Source of the DNA: an uncultured Opitutales bacterium
GTDB lineage: Bacteria > Verrucomicrobiota > Verrucomicrobiia > Opitutales > Intestinicryptomonadaceae
Direction: 5' to 3'
NCBI GenBank assembly: GCA_934613415.1
Contig: CAKTSY010000002.1
Coordinates: 210,001 to 242,000, forward strand
Length of the DNA: 32,000 nt
Made by a program: the position numbers and the translations under genes. Positions 1 through 20,439 of this stretch are shown here, piece after piece. The first letter of the stretch is position 1. Each line of letters opens with the position of its first letter. The notes below the pieces were generated by a model. It saw only the letters and a list, made by a program, of their open reading frames with translations. It had not been told where the DNA came from and searched no databases.

Positions 1-1021
1 GCGAACCGTTTGCAAGAACCATTCCGATTTTCCCGAAAGACGGCTCCATATGAAAAATCATATGCTGTAGCCATGCAAAGTTTGCGTTGCCTTCTGGCGG
101 AATGCCAAAACACCAGCGTTTGTCGTTTTTCAACTTATCTCCGCCCCAATCCGACATATTAAACGGCGGATTCGCCATAATGTAGTCGAATTTTTCGGTC
201 GGGAAACGGTCGTTCATGAAGGTGTCTGCGTTATAATCGCCGAGGTTTGCCTCTATGCCGCGAATTGCCAAATTCATCTGCGCCATCTTCCAAGTAGTCG
301 GGTTCGATTCCTGACCGAAAACCGAAATATTATTTATGTTTCCTTTGTGGTCTTCAACAAACCTTGCAGACTGAACAAACATTCCGCCAGAACCGCAAGC
401 AGGGTCGTAAACCCTAATACCGCGAGTTCCGCGCCTTGCGCTGCTTAGCGGTTTTAAGATTTCGACAATCGTTTTCACCACGCACGGAGGTGTATAGAAT
501 TCCCCTGCCTTTTTTCCCTCGTTTTCGGCAAACTGAGCCAAACAATATTCGTAGGCACGCCCCAAAATATCGCGGGAATCACCATGGACACTCATTTTAA
601 CATTGGTAAAGAGGTCTATAACTTCGCCAAGCCTGCGTTTGTCAAGTTCTGGGCGAGCAAATCCCTTTGGAAGAATATTTTTTAGGCGCGGATTTTCCTT
701 TTCGATTAGTTCCATCGCCTTATCGATAACCTTCCCAATTTCGGAGGTATGGGCTGCATACGAAATAGCTTCCCAACGCGCCTGCTGGGGTACAAAGAAG
801 ATTCCTTCGGCATCGTAGGCATCTCTGTCTTCTTCAAAGCCTTCGCCTTCGTTTTTTAGTTCGTTATATTTTTCTTCAAATTTGTCCGAAATGTATTTTA
901 GAAAAATCAGCCCCAAAACAATATTTTTGTATTCCGAAGCGTCCATATTGCCGCGAAGCTTGTCGGCCGCGCTCCAGATTTCCTTTTCAAAACCTACATT
1001 AGCTGTATTTATGTCGTCCAT
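1..1021 (-). CDS. hsdM: Type I R-M N6-adenine DNA methyltransferase HsdM, first ~340 codons; the 3' end runs off the window
   Basis: Absent from the ORF track because it is edge-truncated. Manual reverse-complement translation from the ATG at 1021-1019 stays open to position 1: MDDINTANVGFEKEIWSAADKLRGNMDASEYKNIVLGLIFLKYISDKFEE...GEFYTPPCVV...VYDPACGSGGMFVQS...FDYIMANPPFNMSDWG...NANFAWLQHMIFHMEPSFGKIGMVLANGS. AdoMet motif DPACGSGGMF and catalytic NPPF are present. Confidence 0.85.
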   Translation of the reverse strand, partial: MDDINTANVGFEKEIWSAADKLRGNMDASEYKNIVLGLIFLKYISDKFEEKYNELKNEGEGFEEDRDAYDAEGIFFVPQQARWEAISYAAHTSEIGKVIDKAMELIEKENPRLKNILPKGFARPELDKRRLGEVIDLFTNVKMSVHGDSRDILGRAYEYCLAQFAENEGKKAGEFYTPPCVVKTIVEILKPLSSARRGTRGIRVYDPACGSGGMFVQSARFVEDHKGNINNISVFGQESNPTTWKMAQMNLAIRGIEANLGDYNADTFMNDRFPTEKFDYIMANPPFNMSDWGGDKLKNDKRWCFGIPPEGNANFAWLQHMIFHMEPSFGKIGMVLANGS

Positions 1022-1443
1022 ATTATTTTTACAATCCAGTCTTAAAATAGGCAAAAAATCAGAATTCATCAAGTCCTATTTACGGAACTAGAATGGAAGA
1101 AGTAGAAACAAATCTAGATGAGGCCTATTTAAACGAGTTTTTACGCATTTTATCTAAAATATCGTATTACTCTTGTTTTCCATTTGAAGCGTGGAAAATT
1201 CTATAATCATTAACTTACTAGCTTAAAACTTGATATAAATCTTGTGTGAGCAAAACATGAGTCGTTTCCCAATAATATCTTATTGTATAAATGCCCGAAA
1301 ATGTGCTGCTTTATTGGGGGTTGTTTGTCTGCCATAGTGTGGTTTAAGAAATATATAACTAGACAAAAATCACTAATATATGCCAATATTCTAATTATGA
1401 TTGACTTTATAGCTAAGCTATGGTCTCATTACAGCTTTATCCG

Positions 1444-1481
1444 GCCCCTGTAGTTCAACGGATAGAACGGGCGTTTCCTAA
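1444..1481 (+). pseudogene. 5' half of a tRNA-Arg(CCU) gene, from acceptor stem to anticodon loop, truncated after TTCCTAA; putative attL
   Basis: GCCCCTGTAGTTCAACGGATAGAACGGGCGTTTCCTAA. It has a D-stem GTTC/GAAC and the anticodon-stem 5' strand GGCGT, then the loop TTCCTAA. Unrelated AT-rich DNA follows. It matches the complete copy at 13250-13287 (minus) at 37 of 38 positions. Confidence 0.8.
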
Positions 1482-1570
1482 TTTTGAATATATTCTATCC
1501 ATATTTATTTTTTTCTTTCGTTTTGTATTTTATTTGGTTTTAGCAAGTTGCAAGACCTGAAGCGTAAAAA

Positions 1571-1590
1571 TTCTTGCGTATTCTTGCGTA
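1571..1590. repeat. Perfect tandem 10-mer TTCTTGCGTA x2; further GCGTA copies at 1562-1566 and 1631-1635
   Basis: Read directly: agcgtaaaaaTTCTTGCGTATTCTTGCGTAttttt, about 90 nt inside the left junction. Confidence 0.9.
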
Positions 1591-1698
1591 TTTTTAAGGC
1601 ATTAAACACTATCAAAAACACCGTATTTTTGCGTAATTTTACAGAAAAATCCTTACCAAATTCTGACCATTTATTTTGACAGTATTTTAGGCGAATGT

Positions 1699-2181
1699 TC
1701 ATTCCGCATTCCTCCCATAATTACGCTTCCAATAGCTTAATGCACTTTCAATGGAACTGTATAATTTGCCACCTTCGCGATTAGCCGAAGTGTCGTCAAG
1801 AATGCGTAATATAACCTCATCATGCCCTAAATTTTCTACTACCTTTTGCAGCGCTGGAATCTTCAAAAACTCGTCAATTAAAGACATCACCCATCTGCGC
1901 TTGCGAACGGAAAGTTTTGAAAATTCAAACTTGGCACAACGCTCACCTCCAAACATCTGAACCCAAATTTTGCAGGAAATCTTCTGATGATTGTTGTATT
2001 TGTCGGAAGCAAAATATCCGTCCAGACGAACCTTCCGCAAGCGATAGTAAAAATCGTTTCTCTGAACGATAACCCAAATCCCGACCGCCTTCATCGGCAG
2101 TTCGAAAATCTCCGCCATTTCAGGAGTAATCTTGAATTTCTCAAACCCGTCAGTTGATATCTTTGTCTTGCTTATCATCAT
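1699..2181 (-). CDS. Hypothetical protein, 160 aa, no recognisable motif
   Basis: ORF-track entry in the AT-rich block with a varied amino-acid composition. Its stop overlaps the ATG of the 65-aa ORF 1505..1702 as ATGA. Confidence 0.5.
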   Translation of the reverse strand: MMISKTKISTDGFEKFKITPEMAEIFELPMKAVGIWVIVQRNDFYYRLRKVRLDGYFASDKYNNHQKISCKIWVQMFGGERCAKFEFSKLSVRKRRWVMSLIDEFLKIPALQKVVENLGHDEVILRILDDTSANREGGKLYSSIESALSYWKRNYGRNAE

Positions 2182-2655
2182 ACCTTTGTCCCTATGGCAT
2201 CTATACTACCACACCAGGCAAAAATACGCAACATTTTTATTTATTATTTTTAGACAATATTTCTCGTATAGAATTTTTCCTCCTTAATGTTGTCGATATT
2301 GTAGATAAATTACGAAAATATTACAATTACTACGTTTTTACGAAATTTGAATTAACGTGTAAAATTTGAATATGCAGATAGGAATGTAGCGATAGCCATA
2401 ATAGCTGTTAAAAATATAATTATTCTTGAACTTATGTTTGATGCTTTCGTTTGTTTTTCTATTGTGTTAGTTTTTCTAAGTTTTTAGACAATGTTTCAGA
2501 AGATTCATTTATTATTTTTGCGTGAAATTCTATCTTTTCATTAACTTCTCTTGATGATCTTGTGATGGAATCTCCACAGAATTTTAATCCATTTATTATA
2601 TCAATACTCATATTTTATCTTTATTTAGTGTGTTATTATCAAAACATTTTATCAT

Positions 2656-4326
2656 TTATAATTTTATTCTTTCTGTCGTCTTGTAAAAATATTTTATAGA
2701 TTCATCAAAAATTATATCTATATCTTTTATTGCGTATTTGAGTGTTAAGTCTTCCAATCTTTTTGTTCTGCTCAATCCTACATATGTTTGTCCACTGGCA
2801 AACGGATTGGCTCCATCGTAATAAACTTTGTCTATCGTCTTGCCTTGTGCCTTATGTACAGTTGTCGCAAATGCAAGCTCCAAAGGGATTTGGTATATCG
2901 TATCCTTTATCTTAGATTTTAGTATATTCTTCCCTTCTTCATCCTTTTTTACTTCGTATTCGTATAAATCCCATTTGTAAGGTGTAACTCTTTCTGTTTT
3001 TTTTGTACTTAGCATTTCCACATCTACATAACAATCGGCATCTCCATTTTCTTTTATATCTCTTACAATTCCCATTGTCCCGTTGTATATTCCGTCAGAC
3101 ATATTTATTACAAACATCACCAACGCATCTCTTTTTAATGTTAAACACTGGGAAAACAAAATATCTTTAAAAACAGGATCGCCTTGCTGGCATTTGATTT
3201 TTCCGTTGAGGCTTGTTATTCGATAGGCATGAAAATTATATTCCTTGCTTTTTAAATTACTTAACGCATCCTGATTTACCGCATCTACATCTTTATTTCT
3301 ATGCATGAGTTTTAATGCATTTTTTGGAGCTTGGGCGGATACTCTGTCATTAAAAAATTTTAGAGTTTGCGTCAAATTGTTCCTATCGCGAATGTTATCT
3401 AAAAGAGAACAAAATTCTTTGTCGGCTCTATGTTGGTCTTCTAAGAACAACATTTCTATTTTCATATTTCTAAATACATCTGCCTTAAAAAAATAATCAT
3501 ACTCTCCTTCGTTTTTCTTCCCTTTTAGGTTAAGTATTTTCCCGTATTCTTTTGTTATGACAGGAGGTAGTTGATATAAATCACCAGCTACGACTAATTT
3601 TATTCCTCCAAAAGCCTTGTTTGAATTTTTCGCTTTTCGCAAAATCTCGTCTATACAGTCCATCATATAGGCACTAACCATAGAAATTTCATCTATAAGA
3701 AGGTATTTTGTTATATTTATTTTATCTTTTGCTTTTTCTATGGAATTTTTTATATCTGCCTTGTCTAATAACTTCGGCGGCAATTTAAAGAAACTATGTA
3801 TGGTTGCTCCGTGTATAATACTTGCAGAAACACCCGTTGGAGCTAAAAGTACGCATCCTTTCAATCTTAAAGACAGATGCTCTATAATGTACGATTTACC
3901 GCTTCCGGCATTGCCTGTAATGAAAAGAACTGAGTTGTCTCCTTCATTCTTTTTTAAATATTCTGCAACCTTTTCATATGATGGGTCTTTATTTTCATAA
4001 AGTTGGATATTTCGCCGTAGGTCTTCGTTTTCTTTTTGCAGGGCCTTATAATCTAATTTTAGCACATTGAACTCTTCGGATATTCTTTTTAATTCTTCGG
4101 TGTATTCTATTTTTTCCGCAAGGAGTTTGTTCTTTGTTTCTTCTATTTCCTTGCATTTCAAATCAAATAATTCTTGTGCGCGCAGATTTATTTTTTCTTG
4201 CGAAAGTGTAGAAAAATATACATGCGCAATAAATACAAAGCCTCCTATTAAAACAAAAAGAATGAACATCGCGTCTCCGCTCATGGAGTGTTTTGTCGCA
4301 AAAATTATAAAGAATTGATGCATCAT
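2656..4326 (-). CDS. PIF1/RecD-family (SF1B) DNA helicase with an N-terminal transmembrane helix and coiled coil
   Basis: Helicase motifs: I ITGNAGSGKSY; Ia LLAPTGVSASIIHGATIHSFF; II LLIDEISMV; III VVAGDLYQLPPV; a QHR...LLDNIR signature; V/VI AFATTVHKAQGKTID. The N-terminus has AMFILFVLIGGFVFIAHVYF, then ~90 aa of K/E/L-rich heptad-like sequence. The start could be M1 or M15 (4284). Confidence 0.85.
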   Translation of the reverse strand: MMHQFFIIFATKHSMSGDAMFILFVLIGGFVFIAHVYFSTLSQEKINLRAQELFDLKCKEIEETKNKLLAEKIEYTEELKRISEEFNVLKLDYKALQKENEDLRRNIQLYENKDPSYEKVAEYLKKNEGDNSVLFITGNAGSGKSYIIEHLSLRLKGCVLLAPTGVSASIIHGATIHSFFKLPPKLLDKADIKNSIEKAKDKINITKYLLIDEISMVSAYMMDCIDEILRKAKNSNKAFGGIKLVVAGDLYQLPPVITKEYGKILNLKGKKNEGEYDYFFKADVFRNMKIEMLFLEDQHRADKEFCSLLDNIRDRNNLTQTLKFFNDRVSAQAPKNALKLMHRNKDVDAVNQDALSNLKSKEYNFHAYRITSLNGKIKCQQGDPVFKDILFSQCLTLKRDALVMFVINMSDGIYNGTMGIVRDIKENGDADCYVDVEMLSTKKTERVTPYKWDLYEYEVKKDEEGKNILKSKIKDTIYQIPLELAFATTVHKAQGKTIDKVYYDGANPFASGQTYVGLSRTKRLEDLTLKYAIKDIDIIFDESIKYFYKTTERIKL

Positions 4327-4704
4327 ATTTAGATTTTAATTAAAAAATAGAAGATAGTTACATTCGCATGCATCTGTTTTTTCTATTCATTGTCCCAAAG
4401 TATATGTAAATTTATGTGAAAAAGTCAAAGTAATTAAAAAGAATATGGAATAGTAGAAATTTTCAAAACCTCTTTTTTACAACAAAATCCCATAAACATT
4501 TTTATTCATAGTGACGACTTTTCTATCGTGTAACAAGCTATACCCACTAAGACTCTTCTTGATATATTATAGGTTTAATAATTATTTTATGCTATTTTTA
4601 TAAAAAGAGCAGTTATAAGAAAAGATGTCTTGAACTGGGCATAATAAAGATGCTAACATATATTACACTAAGACGCTTTAAAATGATTAAAAAAAGATGC
4701 TAAT

Positions 4705-6105
4705 ATGCCAAGAATAGGGATTACTGTTTATGATTTACTAATATCTTGTCCGGGAGATGTCTCTGATTATGTGAACATTGTAAACGAGTGTGTAGACGGA
4801 TTTAATCGTACATTAGGAGATATAAATAATGCTAAAATTGAAGCAAAGCATTGGTCAACGGATAGTTTCCCTGAGTCAGGAGATAAACCACAAGAGTTAT
4901 TAAACAAACAAATTGTGCGTGGTTGCGATGCGGCCATTGCAATTTTTTGGACAAAATTTGGGACTCCTACGGATAAATATGGCTCAGGTACTGAAGAAGA
5001 AATTGAAGAAATGTTATCTGCAAAGAAACAGATTTTCCTTTATTTTGTGAATGAGCCTATTAATCCTTCCGAATTGGACCAAAAACAATATAACAAGATA
5101 AAAGAATTCAAAGAGAAATATAAGGACAGGGGAATATATTGTGAAGTAAAAAATAAGGACGATTTTAGAACGCAATTCACTAATCATTTGACGATGTATT
5201 TCTTGCCAATAATAATGGGTAAAAACCAGAAAAATGCAGGAGTGGCAGCTCCCGTATTGCAAATACAAGATTATTATTCCGAAAAGAGAAATACGGCATC
5301 TATTCAAAATATCAAATTATTGGATTGGGAGTTAATAAAAGAAAAACATCAAAGTATTTGCACTCAAATAAAGAAATTAAATAAGGATTATTTACCTCAA
5401 CGTGTGCCAGCAAAAAAAGAAGTTAATGATATTGCAGGAATTTTAAAAATTCAAAATTCATTTTTGCCAACAAGATCAGATGTGTCGATATCTAAATCAA
5501 AGAAGGATACCATTTTAACATTTTGTCATCATAACTCTTTAGAAATCCCTGAACAATTTTGGAATTTGGGCGATTTAAAACAACAAACATCAAAATTGCC
5601 TTTTTCGCCATATTACAATAATAATTCGCTTGAAGGGACAGATGCGGAACAAGAACGTTATGAGGCCATAATAAACTTATATTCTGGCATTCTAAAATAT
5701 AACGAATATTATACATATTTTTCTCAAATAGAGAATCAAAGATTTGTATCATTGGTAATTGCAAATATCGGAGCGAGTTTTGATGAAGACATAGATGTCA
5801 AGTTGATTTTTGAAAAAGGTTGTATATTGGGACATCAAGACATCCCCTGCCCAGGACAACATATAATAGAAGATATATTAGAATCTCAATTCATAGAATC
5901 TATATATGGGATAGATGCGACCGACTCTATTTGTAAATATAGTGCTCATTCTATTATGCATGCTTATCTTGATCCGGATATTAAATATCCTTTCCCCCAA
6001 CTTTCCGAAAGTGAAAGATACGAAAATAGAAAACGTAGCTATAGAGACCATTTGGAAAATGTTTTATGTTATGAAATATACAAAAAAGGGGGAACGATAT
6101 TTTAA
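4705..6105 (+). CDS. Hypothetical protein, 466 aa; N-terminal ~170 aa resemble a TIR/DUF4062/nucleoside-deoxyribosyltransferase-like alpha/beta domain; the rest is unknown
   Basis: It is a long ORF divergent from the helicase. The N-terminal pattern is ITVYDLLISCPGDV ... CDAAIAIFWTKFGTPT..GSGTEEEIEEM..KKQIFLYF (strand, helix, strand, acidic G-[ST]-x-E-E, strand). I recognise no motif in the C-terminal 300 aa. The gene may be frameshifted at its 3' end (see findings). Confidence 0.6.
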   Translation: MPRIGITVYDLLISCPGDVSDYVNIVNECVDGFNRTLGDINNAKIEAKHWSTDSFPESGDKPQELLNKQIVRGCDAAIAIFWTKFGTPTDKYGSGTEEEIEEMLSAKKQIFLYFVNEPINPSELDQKQYNKIKEFKEKYKDRGIYCEVKNKDDFRTQFTNHLTMYFLPIIMGKNQKNAGVAAPVLQIQDYYSEKRNTASIQNIKLLDWELIKEKHQSICTQIKKLNKDYLPQRVPAKKEVNDIAGILKIQNSFLPTRSDVSISKSKKDTILTFCHHNSLEIPEQFWNLGDLKQQTSKLPFSPYYNNNSLEGTDAEQERYEAIINLYSGILKYNEYYTYFSQIENQRFVSLVIANIGASFDEDIDVKLIFEKGCILGHQDIPCPGQHIIEDILESQFIESIYGIDATDSICKYSAHSIMHAYLDPDIKYPFPQLSESERYENRKRSYRDHLENVLCYEIYKKGGTIF

Positions 6106-6371
6106 AATTTCACATACCATATCTAAAGCATAATACAAAAATGGCATTCCCTTCCGTTTTAATTCTAAAAAATCAACCAAAGAAGATAGAGTATGAAATT
6201 ACCTCAAAGCATATTTCTGATGTTATAAAAGGAGAAATCTCTTTTTCGCCTGAAAATCCAGTTTTATTGGAGCAGTGAGACAGAATCCGCAATTTATTTA
6301 GTGGCAAAGAGGGCTTGAAAGTTTTATGAAATGGTTTAAAGTCTATGGGTAGACTTATTAGAATAGGAAAT

Positions 6372-7976
6372 ATGGCAAAAAAGACTTCCGAAAAGGCTTT
6401 GAATATTGATAATATTCTGTTTAATTGCAGAGATATTTTGCGGGCGGCGCGCAATTCCGGATCGTTTTTTGAAAAACGCGATATGATGCTAACGCTCGTA
6501 TTCCTGCGTTTTATAGGCGAAAAATTTGAAGACGGCATTGAGAAACTCCGCCAAACATTAATCGAACAAGGCATTGACCCTGATGATGAAAACAACAAAG
6601 CCGCATTTTTTGACGATCCAAGTTTTGCGGACGGAACATATAATTTGGCGGTTGAAGCGCGTTGGGCAACCATTATAAACACACCTGCGCCCAATCTTAA
6701 TGTTGCGCTTGACACTGCTCTTCACAGCATTGCGACAGATTCAAAACAATTGAAAGGCTGTTTCGTAGAGGGTACTTTTACAACGCGCAATCTTGCTCCT
6801 AATGACATAAAGAAGCTTGTAGACGAGGTTAACAAAATTAGCCACAAAGCTTTTGGAGAGGAAAAAGACCTTATTGGGCGCGTATACGAATATTTTCTTA
6901 AAGAGTTTGCAGTAAATGCCACAAAGGAAGAAGGCGAATTTTATACTCCCCACGATGTTGTGCAGCTCATCGCATCCATGATAGAACCTTATGAAGGCAC
7001 ATTATATGACCCTGCTTGCGGTTCGGGCGGTATGTTTATTCAGAGCGCAGAACTTGTCAAATCGAGGCAAGGCGACATCAATCGAATCAACATATATGGT
7101 CAGGAAAAAGATGCCGCCACTTATCGTCTTGCAAAAATGAACCTTGCGCTTCGCGGGCTTAGCCACGATCTTGGAGAAACAAACGACTCTTCATTTACCC
7201 ACGATCTGCATAAGGGGCTTTATTTTGATTACATAATGGCGAATCCGCCATTCAATCTCAAGGGGTGGTATAACGATAACTTAAAAAATGATGCGCGTTG
7301 GGCTGATTATGCTGTGCCGCCGGAAAGCAATGCAAATTATGCTTGGATTTTACATATACTTTCCCACTTAAAACCTTCTGATGGGGTTGCCGGATTTTTA
7401 CTTGCAAATGGCGCGTTGAACGATAGCGATACCTTGGGAATTCGCCAAAAGCTAATTCAAAAAGACAAAGTTGAGGCAATCGTTGTTCTGCCGAGAGAAT
7501 TGTTTATCACTACAGATATCAGCGTTACGCTTTGGATTTTGAATCAGAATAAAAAAGGCGGCAAATACCACGGACGTAAACTGCGCAACCGCGAACATGA
7601 AATATTATTTATGGATTTACGCCAGTGGACGGAAAATCCCGTTAAAGGTGAAAACAAGAAGAAAGTTCGCTTGATAGCAGCGCAAATTGAAAAAGCGTCT
7701 AAAATTTACCATACTTGGCAAAGCGAAGGAACCAACGGAACAAAGTATGAAGTTCCTGAACTCTATCGCAGCGTGAATAAAACGGAAATAGAGCAAAAAG
7801 GCTGGGCGTTAACTCCAAGTAAATATATCGAATTCATCGACCACGACTTAGACATCGACTACAAAAAGGAAATGTCGCGCATTCAAGCTGAAATGCGTGA
7901 AATCCTAAAGCAAGAAAAGAAATCCCAGCAAATGCTGGAAGACGCATTTAAGGGTATAGGCTATGGCATTGAGTAG
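6372..7976 (+). CDS. hsdM: Type I R-M DNA methyltransferase subunit HsdM
   Basis: Motifs FYTPHDVV, YDPACGSGGMF and FDYIMANPPFN, plus NANYAWILHIL. The preferred start is the ATG at 6372 (MAKKTSEK), preceded by AGGAAA. The track ORF starts at 6345. Confidence 0.93.
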   Translation: MAKKTSEKALNIDNILFNCRDILRAARNSGSFFEKRDMMLTLVFLRFIGEKFEDGIEKLRQTLIEQGIDPDDENNKAAFFDDPSFADGTYNLAVEARWATIINTPAPNLNVALDTALHSIATDSKQLKGCFVEGTFTTRNLAPNDIKKLVDEVNKISHKAFGEEKDLIGRVYEYFLKEFAVNATKEEGEFYTPHDVVQLIASMIEPYEGTLYDPACGSGGMFIQSAELVKSRQGDINRINIYGQEKDAATYRLAKMNLALRGLSHDLGETNDSSFTHDLHKGLYFDYIMANPPFNLKGWYNDNLKNDARWADYAVPPESNANYAWILHILSHLKPSDGVAGFLLANGALNDSDTLGIRQKLIQKDKVEAIVVLPRELFITTDISVTLWILNQNKKGGKYHGRKLRNREHEILFMDLRQWTENPVKGENKKKVRLIAAQIEKASKIYHTWQSEGTNGTKYEVPELYRSVNKTEIEQKGWALTPSKYIEFIDHDLDIDYKKEMSRIQAEMREILKQEKKSQQMLEDAFKGIGYGIE

Positions 7977-9087
7977 GCTCAAACTTGGGGACTTGATTGA
8001 ATTATGCGAATCAAAGAATGAGGATTTGCAGTATAGCATCAATGATGTAAAAGGAATCTCCATCCAAAAAAAATTCATTGAAACAAAAGCTGATATGACA
8101 GATGTGTCTCTAACCCCATATCTCTTGGTAAGACCTGATGACTTTGCTTTCGTTACTGTTACATCTCGCAACGGAGAAAAAATCACTTTAGCACATAATA
8201 CAACAAATAAAACATATATAGTATCCTCATCTTATGTTGTATTCCATGTAAAAGACAAAGAACTCCTCTTATCTGATTTTCTATTTATGTATTTTAATCG
8301 GCCAGAATTTGACCGTTATTCGCGTTTTAATTCTTGGGGATCTGCGAGAGAAACTTTTAGTTGGGAAGATATGTGCGATATTGAAATCGATCTTCCACCG
8401 CTTCCAATTCAGCAGAAGTATGTTGATGTTTATAATGCAATGCTTGCGAATCAAAAAAGTTACGAACGTGGTTTGGACGATTTGAAGCTTGTTTGCGATG
8501 CCTATATTGAAGAGTTAAGGCGTAAAATGCCGTGCGAGACTATTGGAAAATATCTTGAAGAAGTAAGCGAACCAAATACAAACAAAAAATACACTGATGT
8601 ACAAGGTGTTGAATCTACATGTACTTTTATAGATACTCGTGCAAATATGCAGGGAGTTGACATTAGAAAATACACGATCGTGCGAAAAGGGACATTTGTA
8701 TATAATCCATCTCGAATAAATATAGGTTCAATTGCACTTTATCCTAATGAGTCACCTTGTATTGTTTCCCCTATGTATTCTGTATTTAAGATAACTTCTT
8801 TAGAAAAAATATTACCAGAATATTTGATGTTATGGTTTGAGAGAACTGAATTTCAAAGACAAACATGGTATTATGCTGCTGGTTCGGTAAGAGATACTTT
8901 TGACTTTAATTTAATGAAAGAGGTAAAAATTCCATTACCAACAATAGATATACAAAGCGATATAGTAAATATCTTTAACGTGTACAAAAATCGCAAAGCG
9001 ATCAACGAAAAGTTAAAAGTCCAGATAAAAAATATCTGCCCGATACTAATAAAAGGTTCAATCGAAGAAGCAAGGAAGGCTGGATAA
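7963..9087 (+). CDS. hsdS: Type I R-M specificity subunit HsdS with two target-recognition domains
   Basis: It overlaps the hsdM stop by 14 nt and sits between hsdM and hsdR. It has a two-fold repeated architecture with conserved helical spacers (LPPLPIQQKYV... and IPLPTIDIQSDIV...). It is AT-richer than its neighbours, as is typical of TRDs. Confidence 0.88.
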   Translation: MALSRLKLGDLIELCESKNEDLQYSINDVKGISIQKKFIETKADMTDVSLTPYLLVRPDDFAFVTVTSRNGEKITLAHNTTNKTYIVSSSYVVFHVKDKELLLSDFLFMYFNRPEFDRYSRFNSWGSARETFSWEDMCDIEIDLPPLPIQQKYVDVYNAMLANQKSYERGLDDLKLVCDAYIEELRRKMPCETIGKYLEEVSEPNTNKKYTDVQGVESTCTFIDTRANMQGVDIRKYTIVRKGTFVYNPSRINIGSIALYPNESPCIVSPMYSVFKITSLEKILPEYLMLWFERTEFQRQTWYYAAGSVRDTFDFNLMKEVKIPLPTIDIQSDIVNIFNVYKNRKAINEKLKVQIKNICPILIKGSIEEARKAG

Positions 9088-9090
9088 TTC

Positions 9091-12000
9091 ATGGCTAAGC
9101 TAAAAGAATTCAATAGACATTACTGCGAATCGGAATATGAGTATGCCTTTATTGCGTTCTTAGAGTCGGCTGACTGGATCTATTCTTCGGGCAATAAAAT
9201 AGCGCGTACAACAAAAAGAGATGTGTTAATCTCTGATGATTTCAAAAAATTCATAGCCAAGACAAATCCCGATTTAACCGAAGATGAAATCAATAGAATC
9301 TTCGATAATCTTCGTTTGATCGGCAGCGAAAGCGATTTTTCAACCTTGCACAAAGTCTATGGCTGGATGGTAAACGGAATTCAATTCACTCCCCAAAACG
9401 GACTGGCAAGAATGATTCCGTTAATCGATTTTGAAAGTCCTGCCAACAACATCTTCCGCGTAGTAAATCAGTTTGTTGTAGAATACACAAACAATGGGCA
9501 GAAAGAAACCCGTAGGCCGGACATTCTTTTGTTCGTAAACGGTATGCCGCTATGCGTAATTGAGCTGAAAAATCCTGCGGACGCAAACGCAACTATATTT
9601 GATGCTTGGGAGCAAATCAACATACGCTACTGGCGAGACATTCCGCATCTTTTGCATTACTGCCCGTTGGCTTGCATCTCTGACGGTGTAAAAACGAGGC
9701 TGGGAACTGTTCGCACGCCTTATGAGCATTTTTACGCTTGGAGACGCGTAAACGACGGAGATAATGTTTCTACGCTTCCGTTTGAAGAGACTGAAACGAT
9801 GATAAAAGGAGTCTATGCGCCTTCACGTTTCCTTGAAATTTTCAGAGATTACATTTATTTCCAAGATGCCATTTACGACAGCGACGAGAGGGAAATTGTA
9901 TGCCGCTATCCGCAATTTTTCGCGGCAAAACTTTTAAAGCAGAGCATCGTAAAATCAGTTGTAGAAAAAAGCGGCAAAGGCGGAACGTACTTTGGCGCGA
10001 CAGGTTGTGGCAAAACCTACACAATGGCATTCTTGGCACGCCAACTCGCCCTTCGGTGTACCGATATTCCCGAAATAGGCTCTCCGACAATTATTCTAAT
10101 CGTAGACAGAGACGACCTGCAAAAACAAGGCGCAAAGCTCTTTACAAAAAGTAAGGAATTTTTGAATCTTGGCGAAGTATCCATTGTAAAAAATAGAGCC
10201 CATTTAAGACAAGAGCTCGCCGCAAGGCAAAGCGGCGGTTTCTATATCTGCACCATCCAAAAATTCTGCGACCGAAAGGATGATAAAATTGGGCTTATAA
10301 ACGATAGGCGTAATATTATATGCTTTTCAGACGAAGCCCATCGAAGCCAAATCGAGCATTCAAAGAAGATTCAGTTCAGCAAAGACGCTGACGAGAATAT
10401 GAAGGCAATGGTTTCTAAGCCTTACGCAAAGGTCTTAAAAGAAGCCTTCCCTCGGGCTACTTTTGTTGGTTTTACGGGGACGCCCATCGCGGAAACTTAT
10501 CAAACTTTCGGCAATGAAATTGACCGTTATACAATGGACCAGGCTGTTGCGGACGGTTTGACGGTTTCGATAAAGTATCATCCAAGGATAGCAAAAATCT
10601 TGCTTGATAATAAAAAAATACAGGAGATTGAAGCCTATTACAAAAAATGCGCCGACGACGGAGCAACTCTTGAAGATGTAGAGGCAAGCAAAAAAGCAAT
10701 GAGCTCTATGGAGCTTATTCTGGGCGAACCTTTGCGCTTGGAACGGCTTGCCGTAGATATTCACGACCATTATCTTTCCTCTTGCGCAAACGATCCCGAC
10801 AGGATCCAAAAAGCAATGGTCGTTTGCTCAAACAGAAAAATTGCCTATGCCTTATTAAAAGAGTTCAGGGCTAAATATCCGGAATGGTTCGAAGAAAAGA
10901 AATCGCCTGATGGTATTTTCGTAACGGAAGATGAGCTTAAGGAATTAAAGCCGATGCCGTTTATCGCAATGGTATCAAGCGTGGGAAGCAATGATGAGGC
11001 TGAAATGTACAACTATCTTGGCGGCGTTCGCAATGACAAGCGTTCGGAAGAATTGGATGCGGCTTTCAAACAGGAAAAATCGAATTTTCGCATTGTTATT
11101 GTGGTTGATATGTGGATTACCGGTTTCGATGTGCCTTCTCTAACATATTTATATAACGATAAACCTCTAAAAAAGCATCTGTTAATACAAACGATAAGCA
11201 GAGTTAACAGAAAATATCCGGGTAAAGAATATGGCATGATTATAGACTATATAGGCATTCGCGATAATATGCGGGAAGCTATGAAGGTCTATGGCGGCAA
11301 TACTTCTGTTGCTCCGACATCAGACGATGTGGAACAAGCGACGCAAATTTTCAGGGAAGAGCTTGAAATACTAAAAAAACTATTTGTTAATTATGATTTG
11401 ACGCCGTTTTTAGATCCTAATTGCGATCCGATTGAACGCTACAAATTGCTCGCAAAAGCTGCCGAATATGTGTTTTTGTCCACGCAGAGTTTGCGCTTGT
11501 CCGATGGCGATATGGCTCGGAATGTTTCATTTAAAACTTATTTCTTAAAAACCGTAAAAAGAATGAGAGCCGCTTATGACGTTTGCCAGCCTTCGGGAAA
11601 TCTTGGAGAAGAGGAATCCGCGCTGGCACAGTGTTTTATGGCAATAGCGGGTTTTGTCCGCAAAATGAACGGAACAAGCGAAGTTGATGCCGATACAATG
11701 AACCGCACAGTTTCAAAAATGGTGGAAGAAGCCTTAAAATACAATCAAGTGGAAAGTATTCTTGCGGGCGGCGAAGAGGAAGATATCTTCTCTCCCGAAT
11801 ATTTTGAAAAGCTGTCTGACGTTAAAATGCCGGCGACAAAATTAGAGCTTCTGGTTAAAATGCTGCGCAAGGAGATTAAAGAGTACGGAAAAGTAAATCA
11901 GGTTGCCGCCAAGAAATATCAAGAAATGTTGGAAAAAACAATTAAGGAATATCACGAAAGGAGAAAACATCTTGATATTGAAGAAGCGGGCGAAGCCCAA

Positions 12001-12420
12001 GAACGCGCGTCGGAAGACATCCTCCAAAGTGCTACAAAACAAGCTTTAGACATTCTCTCACAAATGAAAGAGAGTAGAGAAAGTTTTAGAAAGATAGGCT
12101 TAACTTTTGAAGAAAAAGCTTTTTACGACATTTTAATCGCATTGCGCGACCAGTATAATTTTGAGTACGGAACAGATAAAAATTTAGGCGGTGTCATTAT
12201 TAACGATAAATGCAAAATACTGGCTAAAAAAATTAAGGAAATAATCGACACAAAATCTTCATTCGCGGATTGGCTTAATAACCAGAATGTCCGCAACCAA
12301 CTAAAACTTGAAATCAAAATTTGTTTAGTCCAAAGCGGATATCCACCGCAATATAGTCCGGAAGTATTCAGCAAAGTTATGGAGCAAGTCGAGAATTTTG
12401 AGGAAAATTCAGCAACTTGA
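9091..12420 (+). CDS. hsdR: Type I restriction endonuclease/translocase subunit HsdR
   Basis: It has a PD-(D/E)xK nuclease motif RRPDILLFVNGMPLCVIELK, Walker A GATGCGKTYT and a DEAH box FSDEAHRSQ. The C-terminal region (EKAFYDIL...) is typical of HsdR. Confidence 0.93.
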   Translation: MAKLKEFNRHYCESEYEYAFIAFLESADWIYSSGNKIARTTKRDVLISDDFKKFIAKTNPDLTEDEINRIFDNLRLIGSESDFSTLHKVYGWMVNGIQFTPQNGLARMIPLIDFESPANNIFRVVNQFVVEYTNNGQKETRRPDILLFVNGMPLCVIELKNPADANATIFDAWEQINIRYWRDIPHLLHYCPLACISDGVKTRLGTVRTPYEHFYAWRRVNDGDNVSTLPFEETETMIKGVYAPSRFLEIFRDYIYFQDAIYDSDEREIVCRYPQFFAAKLLKQSIVKSVVEKSGKGGTYFGATGCGKTYTMAFLARQLALRCTDIPEIGSPTIILIVDRDDLQKQGAKLFTKSKEFLNLGEVSIVKNRAHLRQELAARQSGGFYICTIQKFCDRKDDKIGLINDRRNIICFSDEAHRSQIEHSKKIQFSKDADENMKAMVSKPYAKVLKEAFPRATFVGFTGTPIAETYQTFGNEIDRYTMDQAVADGLTVSIKYHPRIAKILLDNKKIQEIEAYYKKCADDGATLEDVEASKKAMSSMELILGEPLRLERLAVDIHDHYLSSCANDPDRIQKAMVVCSNRKIAYALLKEFRAKYPEWFEEKKSPDGIFVTEDELKELKPMPFIAMVSSVGSNDEAEMYNYLGGVRNDKRSEELDAAFKQEKSNFRIVIVVDMWITGFDVPSLTYLYNDKPLKKHLLIQTISRVNRKYPGKEYGMIIDYIGIRDNMREAMKVYGGNTSVAPTSDDVEQATQIFREELEILKKLFVNYDLTPFLDPNCDPIERYKLLAKAAEYVFLSTQSLRLSDGDMARNVSFKTYFLKTVKRMRAAYDVCQPSGNLGEEESALAQCFMAIAGFVRKMNGTSEVDADTMNRTVSKMVEEALKYNQVESILAGGEEEDIFSPEYFEKLSDVKMPATKLELLVKMLRKEIKEYGKVNQVAAKKYQEMLEKTIKEYHERRKHLDIEEAGEAQERASEDILQSATKQALDILSQMKESRESFRKIGLTFEEKAFYDILIALRDQYNFEYGTDKNLGGVIINDKCKILAKKIKEIIDTKSSFADWLNNQNVRNQLKLEIKICLVQSGYPPQYSPEVFSKVMEQVENFEENSAT

Positions 12421-13036: not shown

Positions 13037-13215
13037 TGCATACTCTTAAAATTGATGAGGGCGTTTTTGCGAGTATTTCGCAAGGCAAAAATGGGAAGGG
13101 TTTGGTAAGAATTTTACCGAATTTTCGGTATATTATTAACGACTTACAAAACTTTTCCGATTTCCATAAGAATGAAAGCAAAACGGCAATATACTAAGCA
13201 AGAAAAACTTATCCG

Positions 13216-13287
13216 CGCCCCCACCGTGAATCGAACACGGATTTGGCGTTTAGGAAACGCTCGTTCTATCCGTTGAACTACAGGGGC
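13216..13287 (-). tRNA. tRNA-Arg, anticodon CCU, complete, no encoded CCA
   Basis: Reverse complement: GCCCCTG-TA-GTTC-AACGGATA-GAAC-G-AGCGT-TTCCTAA-ACGCC-AAAT-CCGTG-TTCGATT-CACGG-TGGGGGC-G. This folds as a cloverleaf with a 7-bp acceptor stem (two G-U pairs), 4-bp D stem, 5-bp T stem and T-loop TTCGATT. The anticodon stem has an A27.C43 mismatch. Confidence 0.85.
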
Positions 13288-13367
13288 GGGATAAAGGAAA
13301 TATGAGACCATAGCTTGGCTTGAAAGTCAACCATAATCCCGATATTTGCGTATATAAGTATCTTTTT

Positions 13368-13430
13368 GCCTATTTACCTATTTGCCGAGTTGGTTAGCGT
13401 CAATACCTATTTCTCCTATTTGCCTATTTT
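13368..13430. repeat. CCTATTT heptamer array, 5 perfect copies, inverted relative to 13011-13036
   Basis: Copies lie at 13369-75, 13377-83, 13406-12, 13415-21 and 13423-29. The last copy abuts the stop codon of the DUF3987-like gene. Confidence 0.85.
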
Positions 13431-14893
13431 CAGAACGGCATATCGTCGTCATCATCGACTTCTATTCCAAGCGCCTTTTTAGCCTCGGAGATTCTATCTT
13501 TCAAGACAACGTATCGCCCTTTACCCTTTTTTAGGATTTCATAAAGATTGGGGAACGTATGCACGATAAATTCCACCCTTTCAGTTCGCAAACTGGAATA
13601 TTGGTCAAAAAAGCTAATCTTCTTATAGAAACCGTCGTTTTGGCGAATCATAGCGTCCATTTTTGCTCTGTCGTTTTCGATTTCTGGAAGCATTCCGCTT
13701 GAGAACAAAACCACCGAAACGCAGATTGAATACGACACCACCCTGCATGCGCGTTTTGCGATGTTGGCGGTGATTCGGTCCGCGCCTTCAGCCTGCGCGA
13801 AAATAACCGCAAGCCTGATTGCGTTTTCCCTTGCCTTGCCAAGCAAAGAAGCCTGCGTGCGCAGTTTGCCGTTCATAAGATGCGTGTTGAATGCGTCGAA
13901 GTCCCAGAAATACTCGAAGACGTCTTGGTCGGTGTCAAACCATACTGGCAGGCCTTTCTTGCGGGTTTGGTAGGTTTGAGCAAGAAGGTTTTCCCATTTG
14001 AGAATTACGGCTTCGTCAAGCGGGATAATTTCTTTCGAGTCTGGAATGGCCTTTGGAGCGCCTTTGCAGTAGAGGAATCTTCCAAGAAACCCGCTGCCGA
14101 TAAAGCTGCCTTTGTTCTTTGAAACGATGTTGTCGATGACGTCGTTTTGCACCATCCAAAGCAGGGAAATGCAGGGATTGGGAACGCTTGAAATCCCGTT
14201 TACAATTCGGTTGTGCTTTATGGGCTCGCCGCACCAGCCGCTGTTTAGCGTTTCGGTGTCGTCGCCTTGCTTGCGATAGTTGCCCGCCACAATGTAGATG
14301 CTGTCGCGGGCTTCCTCGCATACCGAAAAAATTTCGCCGCCGCTTGCTTCCATCGCCTTTATCATGGCTTCCGACGTTGAATTTTTCACGATGAAGTCGG
14401 GGTTTCTCGGGGGCTTGGGAGTGTCCGCAATTTCGTCGTCAAGGCCCAATTTGTCCTCGCCGTTAAGCTTGTCCTGCATGAGCTTTGCCTTCGCTTTCTT
14501 GAATTTCTCAAGCTCCTTTTTGTATTCGGAGATTTCGTCCAAAACCCTTCTTTCCAAATTGGAGAAAAGGGCGCGAATGCTTGCGCTTTTGCCAGTGGAG
14601 CTTTCGCCCACGCCTAGGACAAAGATATTCCCTGTTTGCGTGTATCCGCCGCTTACTGCGTTTTTCGCCTTGAACACTCTGCCCATAGCGCCGCTTAAAA
14701 TTCCGCAGGCGCAGAAGCAAAGAAGCTCCATTGGCAGATTTCTGCCAACGGAATACGTTCTTGCGACGTCGCGGATAGGTTTCGGGAAGGCGTCAATGGG
14801 GCATTCGCTTTCGTAAAACTCTTTGTAGGCTTCCGAAAGCGTCTCCATGGTTGCAAAAAATTGCGGAGTTTTTTGTGCCACGAACCTAGACAT
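13430..14893 (-). CDS. DUF3987-like (YfjI-type) putative helicase/replication protein of integrative elements
   Basis: PIDAFPKPIRDVARTYSVGRNLPMELLCFCACGILSGAMG...NIFVLGVGESSTGKSA matches the DUF3987 pattern as I remember it. The preferred start is MSRFVAQK at 14893, which overlaps the upstream stop as ATGTCTAG. The track ORF extends to 15019. Confidence 0.75.
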   Translation of the reverse strand: MSRFVAQKTPQFFATMETLSEAYKEFYESECPIDAFPKPIRDVARTYSVGRNLPMELLCFCACGILSGAMGRVFKAKNAVSGGYTQTGNIFVLGVGESSTGKSASIRALFSNLERRVLDEISEYKKELEKFKKAKAKLMQDKLNGEDKLGLDDEIADTPKPPRNPDFIVKNSTSEAMIKAMEASGGEIFSVCEEARDSIYIVAGNYRKQGDDTETLNSGWCGEPIKHNRIVNGISSVPNPCISLLWMVQNDVIDNIVSKNKGSFIGSGFLGRFLYCKGAPKAIPDSKEIIPLDEAVILKWENLLAQTYQTRKKGLPVWFDTDQDVFEYFWDFDAFNTHLMNGKLRTQASLLGKARENAIRLAVIFAQAEGADRITANIAKRACRVVSYSICVSVVLFSSGMLPEIENDRAKMDAMIRQNDGFYKKISFFDQYSSLRTERVEFIVHTFPNLYEILKKGKGRYVVLKDRISEAKKALGIEVDDDDDMPF

Positions 14894-15674
14894 TTTCCAC
14901 CTCTCCCCAAGCTGTGTTGCCGTTTTGGCATTGTGCGATGAGCGTCTGAGAAATTTCGGAATCCTCAAACGGCTTGTAATGCCTGAACGAGAAAACCGAC
15001 TCCTCTTTCGTCCCCACAAGCACCGACATTATGTTTGCATAAACACCGATAGCCTTTCCGCCCATGCACCATTTTGCGGGGTGAATCCTTTTGCTCCAAA
15101 ACATCGGCTTGTCGAAGTGGTGGATCAAGACCATTGCAAAGTTGTGCTTCGATTTTAGCCCGTTTATTTTGCAAAAGAGGTCGGCAACTGCCGCATGGTC
15201 TGAAAAGTTGCAATGCACAAACGACGACAGCGAATCCACAATTACCACATCGTACTTGCCCGCGCTTAAAGAAGCGTCCAGTTTCGATATGAATTCGTCC
15301 ACCGAATAATATCGGCCTGTTTTGCAGCGGAAGCGGAAATTATTTTCCATAATTTCGCAAAAGTCCGCCTTTTTATCGAGTTCAAATTGCGAAACGATAT
15401 CGTCTAAGTAGATCTTCTCGTCGGCAATCGGGTTTTCGGAATGGAGCAAGAGGGTCTTGGCGGGGCGGACAATATCAAGCCCCAATGTTTTTTCGCCAAG
15501 GGCGAGGCTTGCGGCAAGCTGCATTGCAAGAACGCTTTTGCCGATTCCGCTCGCGCCCGAAATTACCCACGTCTGCCCTTTGCTTAAAAAGTCCTTCTCG
15601 ATTATAACGCCGTCAAAACCGAAAATGGATTCGTTTTCTTCGGCTAAAATTTGGCTTATCGTGCGAATTCTCAT
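14886..15674 (-). CDS. RecA-like AAA ATPase (AAA_25/RepA-like)
   Basis: It has Walker A GASGIGKS and Walker B VVIVDSLSSF, followed by LIHHFDKP. Its start overlaps the upstream HTH gene stop by 1 nt (TAATG). Confidence 0.75.
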   Translation of the reverse strand: MRIRTISQILAEENESIFGFDGVIIEKDFLSKGQTWVISGASGIGKSVLAMQLAASLALGEKTLGLDIVRPAKTLLLHSENPIADEKIYLDDIVSQFELDKKADFCEIMENNFRFRCKTGRYYSVDEFISKLDASLSAGKYDVVIVDSLSSFVHCNFSDHAAVADLFCKINGLKSKHNFAMVLIHHFDKPMFWSKRIHPAKWCMGGKAIGVYANIMSVLVGTKEESVFSFRHYKPFEDSEISQTLIAQCQNGNTAWGEVENV

Positions 15675-15931
15675 TAGATTTCTCCTTTCTTCGCGCTTTT
15701 GGCGGGGCGGACTATAAAGCAGTGGTCAAGCAGGACGTCGCAATCGCTTTTCTTGTAGCGAATGCACTTGCCCGAAAGACGGTAGCTCGGCAGTTTGCCC
15801 TGTCTGCGGAGCTGCTCAATAAAGGTTGTGCCAATATTGAGATACTCCGCCACCTCTGCGCGTGTAAAAAGCCTGTCGCTTGCGTCAGGCTGCGTTAATG
15901 TTTGAGTTTTTGCGGATTTTTTCTTTTCCAT
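15674..15931 (-). CDS. Excisionase/AlpA-type helix-turn-helix DNA-binding protein
   Basis: LFTRAEVAEYLNIGTTFIEQLRRQGKLPSYRLSGKCIRYKKSD is typical of the HTH_17/Xis family. The preferred start is MEKKKSAK at 15931; the track ORF starts at 16057. Confidence 0.7.
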   Translation of the reverse strand: MEKKKSAKTQTLTQPDASDRLFTRAEVAEYLNIGTTFIEQLRRQGKLPSYRLSGKCIRYKKSDCDVLLDHCFIVRPAKSAKKGEI

Positions 15932-16343
15932 GCAGAATGTCCGCGTGTCAAATTTTTCAAAAATTAATAGCCGCAAAATTGCGAAAAAAATCGAATTGGA
16001 AGGCGAAAAAAATAGTTGGGAAAGTGGTTTCCCAAAGAAGGCGGAAAAACGACACAAAAATAAAAGTGTGTCGATTTTGGATTATATGGCGCAAAAATAT
16101 TCGGCAAAAATTGCTTGGTCGGGGGAAATGTTTCACTGGTGATACAAATGGGAATTCCAAGATATAAACTTCCATTTTCCGCAAAATTTACCGCGTGTTC
16201 CGTTTTTTTAGATCATTTATTTATCCTATTGAAAAACGGCCAAATAGAATTTCTTAAATGGTCTATTATCAAATGGTAATAGGATTAAAAATAAATGGAT
16301 TGTTCAGCTTGACTTGAAACGCTTTTTATACATTTTTCGTTTC

Positions 16344-17060
16344 ATGATAAAGCGGACAGTAGAGGAACAAATTCTTAGAACAATCAGTTTTTTGGAAAGC
16401 GGCAGGGTGTTTTCGTCAACAGATTTTGCGGACATCGCAAACCAAAACACAATCAGAACGGCGTTAAGGCGTCTTACTCTGGCAAAGAAAATCGACGCCC
16501 TTGGGCATTCTCTATATTATAAGCGAATCTGCACAAAAGAATTTCCCTATGGATATAGGCCAAAACATCAATCCATTGCCAATGCCATAGCGCGAAGATT
16601 CTCTTGGAAGATTTTTCCGACGCTGTCTTACACGTTTGCGTATTTTTCGTTGCGCAAAGACGGCGACCGCATATTCCCAAGCTCGGGGCCAAATAAAAAA
16701 TTTGAGTTCAATTCTTTCGCATTTCAGGGAATCGTTGAATTTAGGCATATCCCGCTTAAATTGTCCCGAATTGCCGACAAGAAAGCCTTTATGTACGTTC
16801 AAGCCCTTGTAGCCTTTGGCGAAGATTCCGAAGAAATGAAGCGCATATTTGCAAAGACTTCCACAGAGGATTTGAAAACAGTCATCAGAAAAATAACCTA
16901 TGCGCCGCTAAGAATCCAGAATGTGTTTTTAAAAGAGCTTAAATCGAGGGATAACGGCAAGTCGAATTCAGGAGATGCGAATGCTGAAAACATCAACAAC
17001 GCCTTTAATAAAGTGCAAGAAAAGCGAAAGCTTGCCAGAATATTTCGCAGCTTGTCATAG
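16344..17060 (+). CDS. AbiEi-antitoxin-like/DUF6088-like putative transcriptional regulator
   Basis: The N-terminus, IKRTVEEQILRTISFLESGRVFSSTDFADIANQNTIRTALRRLTLAKKIDALGHSLYY, resembles the winged-helix AbiEi_4/DUF6088 pattern. No AbiEii partner gene is seen. The start is either 16314 or 16344. Confidence 0.5.
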   Translation: MIKRTVEEQILRTISFLESGRVFSSTDFADIANQNTIRTALRRLTLAKKIDALGHSLYYKRICTKEFPYGYRPKHQSIANAIARRFSWKIFPTLSYTFAYFSLRKDGDRIFPSSGPNKKFEFNSFAFQGIVEFRHIPLKLSRIADKKAFMYVQALVAFGEDSEEMKRIFAKTSTEDLKTVIRKITYAPLRIQNVFLKELKSRDNGKSNSGDANAENINNAFNKVQEKRKLARIFRSLS

Positions 17061-17154: not shown

Positions 17155-17169
17155 TTGGAATGCCCGCTG

Positions 17170-20436: not shown

Positions 20437-20439
20437 TCG

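Follow-up and report, generated by a model that had tools for sequence, protein, structure and literature searches.

A low-G+C block in a gut Opitutales defence island: a probable patch of independent modules that includes a frameshifted DUF4062 gene with a large auxiliary domain

The defence island described here belongs to an uncultured gut bacterium of the order Opitutales (GenBank assembly GCA_934613415.1, contig CAKTSY010000002.1) and lies within a stretch of 32,000 nucleotides (nt; positions 210,001 to 242,000 of the forward strand) that we refer to as the "window" and whose own numbering is used throughout. At positions 1482-6340 the window contains an AT-rich block with a PIF1-family helicase gene, a divergently transcribed open reading frame (ORF) for a TIR-like protein of 466 amino acids (aa), and an ORF for a 160-aa protein. 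In the initial annotation, the helicase and the TIR-like gene were proposed to be parts of a single, undescribed defence cassette. We conclude instead, with a probability of roughly three in four, that the block is a horizontally acquired low-G+C cargo patch within a composite, recombining defence island of the Opitutales chromosome, and that it holds three independent modules and not one system. The helicase has no conserved link to the TIR-like gene, and the adjacency of the two reflects the clustering that is found in defence islands or genomic sinks, inside one island lineage. The TIR-like gene is a new member, possibly representing a new lineage of auxiliary domains, of a kind of single-gene system that was described in 2026, in which a DUF4062 core is followed by an auxiliary domain (AUX). 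The features of the block are listed below; L numbers denote the contigs or loci that were compared, and P numbers the homologous proteins or protein clusters.

4705-6278, plus strand: gene for DUF4062 (TIR-like NADase) plus AUX, 524 codons if intact, a pseudogene here (homologues of ~524 aa; one added A restores the ORF)
6082-6087, plus strand: A6 run, site of a one-base deletion (A7 in L108; direct DNA comparison)
4327-4704, no strand: divergent intergenic region of 378 nt, 24.9% G+C
2656-4326, minus strand: intact 556-aa PIF1-family helicase of superfamily 1B (SF1B) (Pfam PIF1, PDB and PHROG matches; hydropathy)
2459-2611, minus strand: 50-aa ORF downstream of the helicase, a doubtful gene (the gene at this position has 50 aa in L108 and 87 aa in L001-L006)
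1699-2181, minus strand: 160-aa protein, conserved island-end module (143 homologues at 57-96% identity)
1505-1702, minus strand: 65-aa ORF (81 aa in relatives), with a 4-nt overlap with the stop of the 160-aa ORF

The separation of the helicase from the DUF4062-AUX gene is drawn from reciprocal searches for co-occurrence. On the side of the DUF4062-AUX family, 80 loci from GTDB species representatives were searched by tblastn with the whole helicase, its core and its N-terminus as queries, over 10 kb on each side as far as the contigs allowed, and a helicase relative was present within that distance at none of them (0/80). From the side of the helicase, the loci of its 80 nearest PIF1 relatives in JGI metagenomes (783 kb) likewise contained no member of the DUF4062-AUX family (0/80). 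Co-occurrence across genomes, which had been set beforehand as a test that could refute a joint cassette, thus failed outside one island lineage. Six independent neighbourhoods of family members at 46-72% identity lack a PIF1 gene as well. In L016, a 72%-identical orthologue stands directly upstream of the same type I restriction-modification (R-M) system that follows the gene in the window, and McrBC and two unrelated small ORFs replace the helicase. Elsewhere, P0006 (54% identical) follows a tRNA methyltransferase gene, P0008 (52%) follows a gene for a 1748-aa DEAD/MZB helicase, P0032 (47%) occurs alone beside an integrase, and P0074 (46%) has two contexts, one behind BREX genes and one with phage-like genes around it. 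The nearest neighbours at the 80 loci are similarly mixed (integrases at 7, tRNA U5-methyltransferase at 7, ResIII at 5, DEAD at 4, HamA at 2, together with methyltransferases), and no gene recurs beside DUF4062-AUX across lineages.

The two genes also decay independently of each other. The helicase is intact and the DUF4062 gene broken in the window, while in L001-L006 the helicase has an internal deletion of ~190 aa and the DUF4062 gene (523 aa) is intact; both are intact in L108. The third module is the pair formed by the 160-aa ORF and its small partner. In L109-L114, which come from the same host clade, this pair (160 aa plus 81 aa) follows hipBA, T5orf172 and a different type I R-M system, with neither the helicase nor the DUF4062 gene present, and since the pair occurs in their absence we regard it as a conserved island-end module that is not part of a cassette with them. 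For the 160-aa protein, searches of Pfam, NCBIfam, PADLOC and PHROGs gave no match, and its AlphaFold2 (AF2) model, although confident (predicted local distance difference test, pLDDT, 89), has no fold match in PDB. No family match was found for the 65-aa ORF, and no significant one for the 50-aa ORF at 2459-2611.

The AT-richness that first set the block apart is borne out. Its G+C content is 32.0%, as compared with 42.4% for the whole window, 46.4% for the integrase module and 45.9% for the right chromosomal flank (18599-32000), and all 11 of the 500-nt windows that span 1001-6500 are at 36% or below. The earlier figure of 23-28% for single 60-nt lines was too extreme, as the median line has 32% and just 29% of the lines are at or below 28%. 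The contrasting value of ~50% that had been given for hsdM, hsdR and the integrase holds for the integrase alone, since hsdM has 41.8% and hsdR 41.3%. A scan of the block for promoters and terminators returned 28 sites against 24 ± 4.5 in shuffled sequence, which is no better than chance. The description of the block as compositionally foreign cargo in the setting of a defence island and mobile element can be retained. The housekeeping proteins of the right flank cluster at 90% identity or more with proteins of "Opitutales bacterium" metagenome-assembled genomes (MAGs), and the carriers of the DUF4062-AUX family among GTDB representatives are almost all Bacillota (the Streptococcus mitis group, Anaerococcus, Clostridia and Bacilli; loci L026-L105). 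The combination of Bacillota carriers, an Opitutales host with a chromosome of ~46% G+C and a block at 32% G+C points to transfer across phyla. In mitis-group streptococci (L039-L054 and L104), a family member occupies one conserved chromosomal site, flanked by the same 687/262-aa and 520-aa genes in 12 or more species, which contrasts with the mobile contexts seen elsewhere.

Judged by its sequence matches, the N-terminal core of the 466-aa gene is a DUF4062 domain, that is, a TIR-like NADase domain, so that the suggestion of a TIR-like protein in the initial annotation was sound. The Pfam model PF13271 (DUF4062) matches 58 of 60 family members at E ≤0.01, the PADLOC profile PDC-S60 matches with E 6e-34 over profile positions 4-176 of 906 only, and BLASTP aligns the core over 163 aa, at 30% identity (E 2e-19), with WP_048602885, a plasmid protein of Enterococcus faecium. 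A tblastn search retrieved 160 plasmid records, and among those listed most are annotated as "DUF4062 domain-containing protein". In the alignment with WP_048602885, the motif SGTEEEIE falls on SGTIAEID, with E99 on the Glu of the Enterococcus protein and W50 on its Trp. The protein has the run S94-G95-T96-E97-E98-E99, and none of E98, E99, E102 and W50 varies among the 60 sequences. By way of the annotated Enterococcus protein, we infer that E99 is equivalent to E97 of KpSwz and E87 of Eva01, which represent the two tested systems discussed below. The AF2 model has five beta-alpha units over residues 7-170, as in the topology described for KpSwz. What follows the core is an AUX region of ~350 aa (residues ~180-524 of the intact protein). 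A search with window residues 180-460 collected 313 clusters at 50% identity, nearly all of them proteins of 490-550 aa with the AUX at ~180-470, and this near confinement of the AUX to proteins of ~500-550 aa indicates one cohesive architecture. No relative of the AUX was detected outside its own family, and searches of PDB by sequence and profile returned no relative, whether the family profile or the N-terminal domain by itself was used.

The 466-aa ORF is not the whole gene. It occupies 4705-6105 on the plus strand and consists of codons 1-463, then three out-of-frame codons, with its stop at 6105, and the 45-aa ORF at 6141-6278 is its C-terminus displaced by a -1 frameshift. Homologues of the 466-aa ORF, counted as 1244 proteins at 90% clustering, align over 99% of its length and are mostly about 520-530 aa in length. 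The closest of them, P0001, is 96% identical and 524 aa long, and its last 45 residues equal the 45-aa ORF except at the final two positions. At the site of the lesion the window reads ACAAAAAAGGGGG (A6), as against ACAAAAAAAGGGGG (A7) in the 94%-identical contig L108, and one A added to the run at 6082-6087 gives a frame of 524 aa that ends at 6278. The gene content that had been ascribed to the block therefore holds for the helicase, the divergent 466-aa TIR-like ORF and the 160-aa ORF, but the "small coupled ORF" at 6141-6278 is not a separate gene. We considered a sequencing error as the cause of the frameshift and rejected it: the 466-aa product is recorded in exactly this form from 18 contigs (NCBI, ENA, Logan), which makes it a genuine allele.

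A second broken allele, in P0443/P0448, has a different frameshift ~35 codons upstream (at about 5995-6005), caused by the loss of one base in a CCCTTTTCCC-like tract, so that this host clade harbours two or more frameshift alleles of the DUF4062-AUX gene that arose independently. They could represent pseudogenisation under the cost of carrying an abortive-infection gene, or a crude form of on/off switching. As regards programmed phase variation, the tracts are short (A7, and T4/C-rich), and two independent events are all that are documented. The tail that is lost from the window copy, its last ~60 residues, holds many invariant and near-invariant alignment columns, and in the AF2 model (mean pLDDT 79) it makes up the terminal beta-strands, residues 457-520. 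Since the lost residues are highly conserved and belong to a C-terminal beta-rich subdomain, the window allele is most probably inactive. The same expectation follows by analogy from the tested systems, in which the AUX is required: it is needed in KpSwz, and in Eva01 the L177* truncation removes the AUX and abolishes defence (bioRxiv 10.64898/2026.06.25.731849). The family as a whole retains the C-terminal AUX.

The initial annotation recognised no named system in the block. The DUF4062 kind has since been named and tested, as the single-gene systems Swarozyc and Evangelion, and the core also matches PDC-S60. A second of the outcomes that had been set beforehand to refute a joint cassette, a match to a named system, has thereby been obtained. 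DUF4062 is described as a TIR-like NADase, and bacterial DUF4062 proteins with an AUX as single-gene abortive-infection systems that need both the catalytic Glu and the AUX (bioRxiv 10.64898/2026.05.01.722283; 10.64898/2026.06.25.731849). For Swarozyc (KpSwz) the trigger is the portal of the phage (Osinski et al., bioRxiv 10.64898/2026.05.01.722283), and for Evangelion a link with recombination and replication functions of phages has been described (Ibarra-Chavez et al., bioRxiv 10.64898/2026.06.25.731849). The protein described here resembles the Swarozyc protein KpSwz in being a single polypeptide with an N-terminal DUF4062 core and a C-terminal auxiliary domain, in the five-fold beta-alpha build of that core with a conserved Glu after an S-x-T motif, and in its location in a defence island and its horizontal spread. 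It differs in its AUX of ~350 aa, for which no relative is detectable outside its own family, and in its distribution, as the family here is mostly from Bacillota and the tested Swarozyc proteins are from Enterobacterales, Acinetobacter and Yersinia. A further difference is that the window allele is frameshifted.

With Evangelion (Eva01 and the lineages Eva02-04) the gene shares a DUF4062 core joined to a required AUX, the single-gene format, carriage by mobile elements, and the conserved Trp of the Q/W/E region, which is W50 here. Its similarity to the Enterococcus plasmid protein is a likeness of the same sort, Enterococcus being the second largest host of Evangelion-positive plasmids (bioRxiv 10.64898/2026.06.25.731849). 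The AUX of Eva01 is short and includes F212, unlike the long AUX here. The N-terminal aromatic motif is represented by F11 in Eva01; where the Enterococcus protein has the Phe of VFIAS, every member of the family has Leu (L12), and Tyr (Y9) is likewise invariant three positions earlier. As for PDC-S60, the Enterococcus DUF4062 protein matches the same N-terminal part of the profile as our protein (~176 positions), but a match to the whole profile fails, with 176 of 906 positions covered and the remainder of PDC-S60 unrelated. PDC entries are guilt-by-embedding candidates (Payne et al., bioRxiv 10.1101/2024.01.29.577857). We found no literature on "PDC-S60" as such, only this general origin of the PDC candidates being citable. 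Thoeris, which combines the TIR protein ThsB with a ThsA that carries SIR2 or Macro-SLOG, is not represented, as the proteins of the block matched no Ths model or other named-system model of PADLOC. If the intact protein works as Swarozyc and Evangelion do, its AUX would recognise a phage component or a replication intermediate, and this recognition would lift the autoinhibition of oligomerised DUF4062 cores; the freed cores would then hydrolyse NAD+, and the infection would be aborted as the infected cell dies or stalls.

The helicase, for its part, is on sequence grounds a genuine PIF1-family SF1B enzyme with a rare N-terminus, and its earlier description as PIF1-like and probably membrane-anchored agrees with its Pfam and PDB matches and with its hydropathy. 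Pfam PIF1 matches at E 2e-28 (100 bits against a cut-off of 25.9 bits), the PDB matches include 8bnv (7e-59), the bacterial enzyme BaPif1 5fhd (2e-46) and human PIF1 (1e-33), and the PHROG family "Dda-like helicase" matches at 4e-64. The complete SF1B core extends over residues ~122-548, and the motifs GNAGSGKS, DEISM, GDLYQLPPV, HKAQGKT and YVGLSR hold invariant columns, so that Walker A, Walker B and the SF1B motifs are all conserved. In this full core with all its motifs the protein resembles bacterial Pif1 (BaPif1 5FHD; 8BNV/8BNS) and the phage Dda-like helicases, from which it differs by an additional N-terminus of ~120 residues, made up of a predicted transmembrane (TM) helix (Kyte-Doolittle 19-residue peak of 2.4 at residues 20-38) and a heptad-rich stretch at ~45-110 that is probably a coiled coil. 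This extension was seen in P0121, P0122 and P0123 only; it is absent from 482 phage, 25 plasmid and 80 metagenomic homologues and from the solved relatives examined. No close relative of the helicase was found in the JGI metagenomes, where a profile scan gave PIF1 relatives at ≤38% identity, all without the extension. In PADLOC the helicase has no full-length model match, just partial P-loop matches, and nothing connects it with a named defence system. The cluster of the helicase at 90% identity includes many fragments of 176-286 aa, which indicates that the gene is often broken in related strains.

The block is flanked by type I R-M genes on both sides:

6345-12420, plus strand: type I R-M system B, with hsdM at 6345-7976, hsdS at 7963-9087 and hsdR at 9091-12420 (Pfam N6_Mtase, 1e-87; Methylase_S; HSDR_N/SWI2_SNF2/T1RH-like_C)
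1-1021, minus strand: hsdM-A, the 5' part of a second type I methyltransferase, which runs off the left edge of the window (340 aa with N6-MTase motifs)

As hsdM-A extends leftward from 1021, the block sits between two R-M systems. Inverted similarity exists between hsdM-A and hsdM-B, and bases 1-186 are 98% identical to the hsdM of L114, a contig with a different island layout that consists of hsdM, hsdS, an embedded RelA_SpoT gene, hsdR, T5orf172, hipBA and a 159-aa ORF.

These arrangements allow for other explanations of the block than a patch of independent modules. A membrane-anchored PIF1-like helicase and a TIR-like protein might form a new two-gene system, in which the helicase could, for example, serve as sensor or motor for a TIR-like effector. 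Their genes are divergent, lie 378 nt apart, have a common low G+C content, and retain this arrangement in all relatives at 87-98% identity, which carry the same island. We nevertheless find such a system highly improbable in view of the reciprocal counts of 0/80 and 0/80, the separate loss of the two genes in different strains, and the locus L016, where the R-M system is kept and McrBC and two unrelated ORFs are at the place of the helicase; moreover, the DUF4062 systems tested in the literature act as single genes. Another explanation ties the DUF4062-AUX gene to the adjacent R-M system, as a backup or guard that would fire when R-M is inhibited. PrrC with EcoprrI is the precedent for a gene of the abortive-infection type that is physically attached to a type I R-M operon, but the gene here lies upstream of hsdM and not between hsd genes, and its effector chemistry differs. 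The gene immediately precedes hsdM in the same orientation (at a distance of 66 nt here, about 93-97 nt in relatives), this hsdM-adjacent position holds in lineages at 72%, 87% and 96% identity, and relatives of the R-M system (79-85% aa identity) adjoin DUF4062-AUX genes that are just 32-33% identical, in a Planctomycetaceae MAG and in a Butyricicoccus MAG. The loci of R-M relatives are 3732-11473 in L092, 10001-16689 in L099 and 5710-14169 in L016, as compared with 6345-12420 in the window. In addition, L016 carries a second, short canonical DUF4062 gene after hsdR, and the genes from which PADLOC took its PDC candidates lie within BREX, DISARM and type I R-M systems. This R-M lineage may be recurrently associated with DUF4062 genes. 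For functional coupling of the PrrC kind we found no evidence, as an hsdM relative is present within 10 kb at only 5 of the 80 family loci and an hsdR relative at 4 of the 80; most family members adjoin unrelated genes, the position relative to R-M varies (upstream, downstream or convergent), and the DUF4062 systems tested in the literature need no partner. We consider a guard of this type quite unlikely.

The helicase might also be an undescribed defence or exclusion gene in its own right, a membrane-tethered PIF1 motor that acts on entering or replicating foreign DNA. Its position between two R-M systems in a defence island, its full set of intact motifs, and an extension that is conserved in P0122 at 63% identity and missing from the phage, plasmid and metagenomic homologues would fit such a role. 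Set against this are the lack of a full-length PADLOC match, the small size of the clade (three close clusters) and the frequent fragmentation or deletion of the gene. PIF1/Dda-like helicases are, furthermore, common as replication genes of phages and mobile elements, and a decaying mobile-element gene is at least as likely, so that we hold a stand-alone defence function to be unlikely. The wider proposition that the TM-PIF1 protein is an independent, undescribed inner-membrane defence or exclusion motor, and that the DUF4062-AUX gene at the same time represents a candidate Swarozyc-like sensor class with a large AUX, carried mostly by Bacillota, below the Pfam threshold and recurrently frameshifted, is as a joint claim distinctly doubtful. 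The reading that we prefer, of independent modules with a DUF4062-AUX gene among them, has several observations that weigh against it. One is the divergent adjacency in close relatives that was mentioned above. Another is that a single independent relative of the TM-helicase clade is known, P0122, on a contig of 2.8 kb that is too short to show the upstream region, for which reason the test of co-occurrence on the helicase side depends mainly on PIF1 relatives at ≤38% identity. With PF13271 the window protein reaches 19.4 bits, under the gathering threshold of 24.7; the conserved Glu was aligned to the annotated DUF4062 protein alone and to neither KpSwz nor Eva01; TIR domains were not specifically retrieved when PDB and BFVD were searched with Foldseek; and the assignment of NADase activity and abortive infection comes from two preprints. 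The scores below the threshold are attributable to the Pfam DUF4062 model, which spans about half of the domain (Osinski et al., bioRxiv 10.64898/2026.05.01.722283).

The island itself has a history of rearrangement around a tRNA-Arg gene, whose pieces and associated integrase module are as follows:

1365-1488, plus strand: upstream region and 5' half of tRNA-Arg(CCT) as far as the anticodon loop (TTCCTAA), which meets the cargo in an att-like junction (matches the reverse complement of 13250-13366 at 82% identity)
13215-13287, minus strand: intact tRNA-Arg(CCT) gene (ARAGORN; alignment and fold; 3' half identical to the repeat at 18541-18598)
13430-18441, minus strand: integrative-element backbone with a DUF3987 protein, AAA_25 ATPase, HTH_17, DUF6088 (on the plus strand) and a tyrosine integrase at 17170-18441 (Pfam and NCBIfam matches)
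18541-18598, plus strand: 3' half of tRNA-Arg plus 16 nt, an att repeat at the chromosome boundary (58 nt, 100% complementary to 13199-13256)

Of the features of a tRNA-integrated island, a tyrosine integrase, a tRNA-Arg gene and a perfect 58-nt repeat are present, but the repeats are inverted and not direct. What had been taken as "attL" at 1482 is the end of the tRNA-Arg(CCT) 5'-half fragment. The junction of 1365-1488 with the cargo is conserved in L001-L006 and L108-L114, and since this holds in all related contigs it is not the edge of a recent insertion but an att-like junction that predates this strain. In L001, L002, L003 and L109-L111, the integrase module is joined through the "upstream plus 5' half" sequence to the end of the cargo with the 81/160-aa pair, while in the window it is joined through the intact tRNA gene to the hsdR end. 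The cargo segment 1489-13249 (11.8 kb) is accordingly inverted relative to the integrase module as compared with at least 8 related contigs. The simplest reading of these sequences is an inversion by exchange within the tRNA 5' half or the anticodon loop, and it may have been mediated by the integrase between inverted att-like sites. When the left 5' half is joined to the right 3' half, the resulting tRNA folds better than the present intact one (-29.5 versus -25.8 kcal/mol) and has one more anticodon-stem pair, the first anticodon-stem pair of the present intact tRNA being mismatched.

The integrase module includes, at 16314-17060 on the plus strand, the DUF6088 gene, which is related to AbiEi-type antitoxins. 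No recognisable AbiEii partner is found there, and the ORFs downstream of the DUF6088 gene, read in its direction, overlap the integrase gene, which is encoded on the other strand.

The analysis removes a false lead, in that an adjacency maintained within one island lineage had looked like a two-gene system, and it illustrates how a single gene, once frameshifted, may be mistaken for a gene with a small ORF coupled to it. Two leads for follow-up are the rare membrane-anchored PIF1 helicase and the tRNA-Arg-based island with its 11.8-kb defence cargo inverted relative to related strains. A third is the large DUF4062-AUX lineage, which comprises 1244 proteins at 90% clustering and 313 clusters at 50%, most of them under the Pfam cut-off. 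It may have been under-sampled in the surveys that led to Swarozyc and Evangelion, and for the Evangelion survey this is probable, because most family members fall below the PF13271 threshold that was used there. The lineage is a natural case in which to ask how the diversity of AUX domains sets the trigger specificity of these systems.

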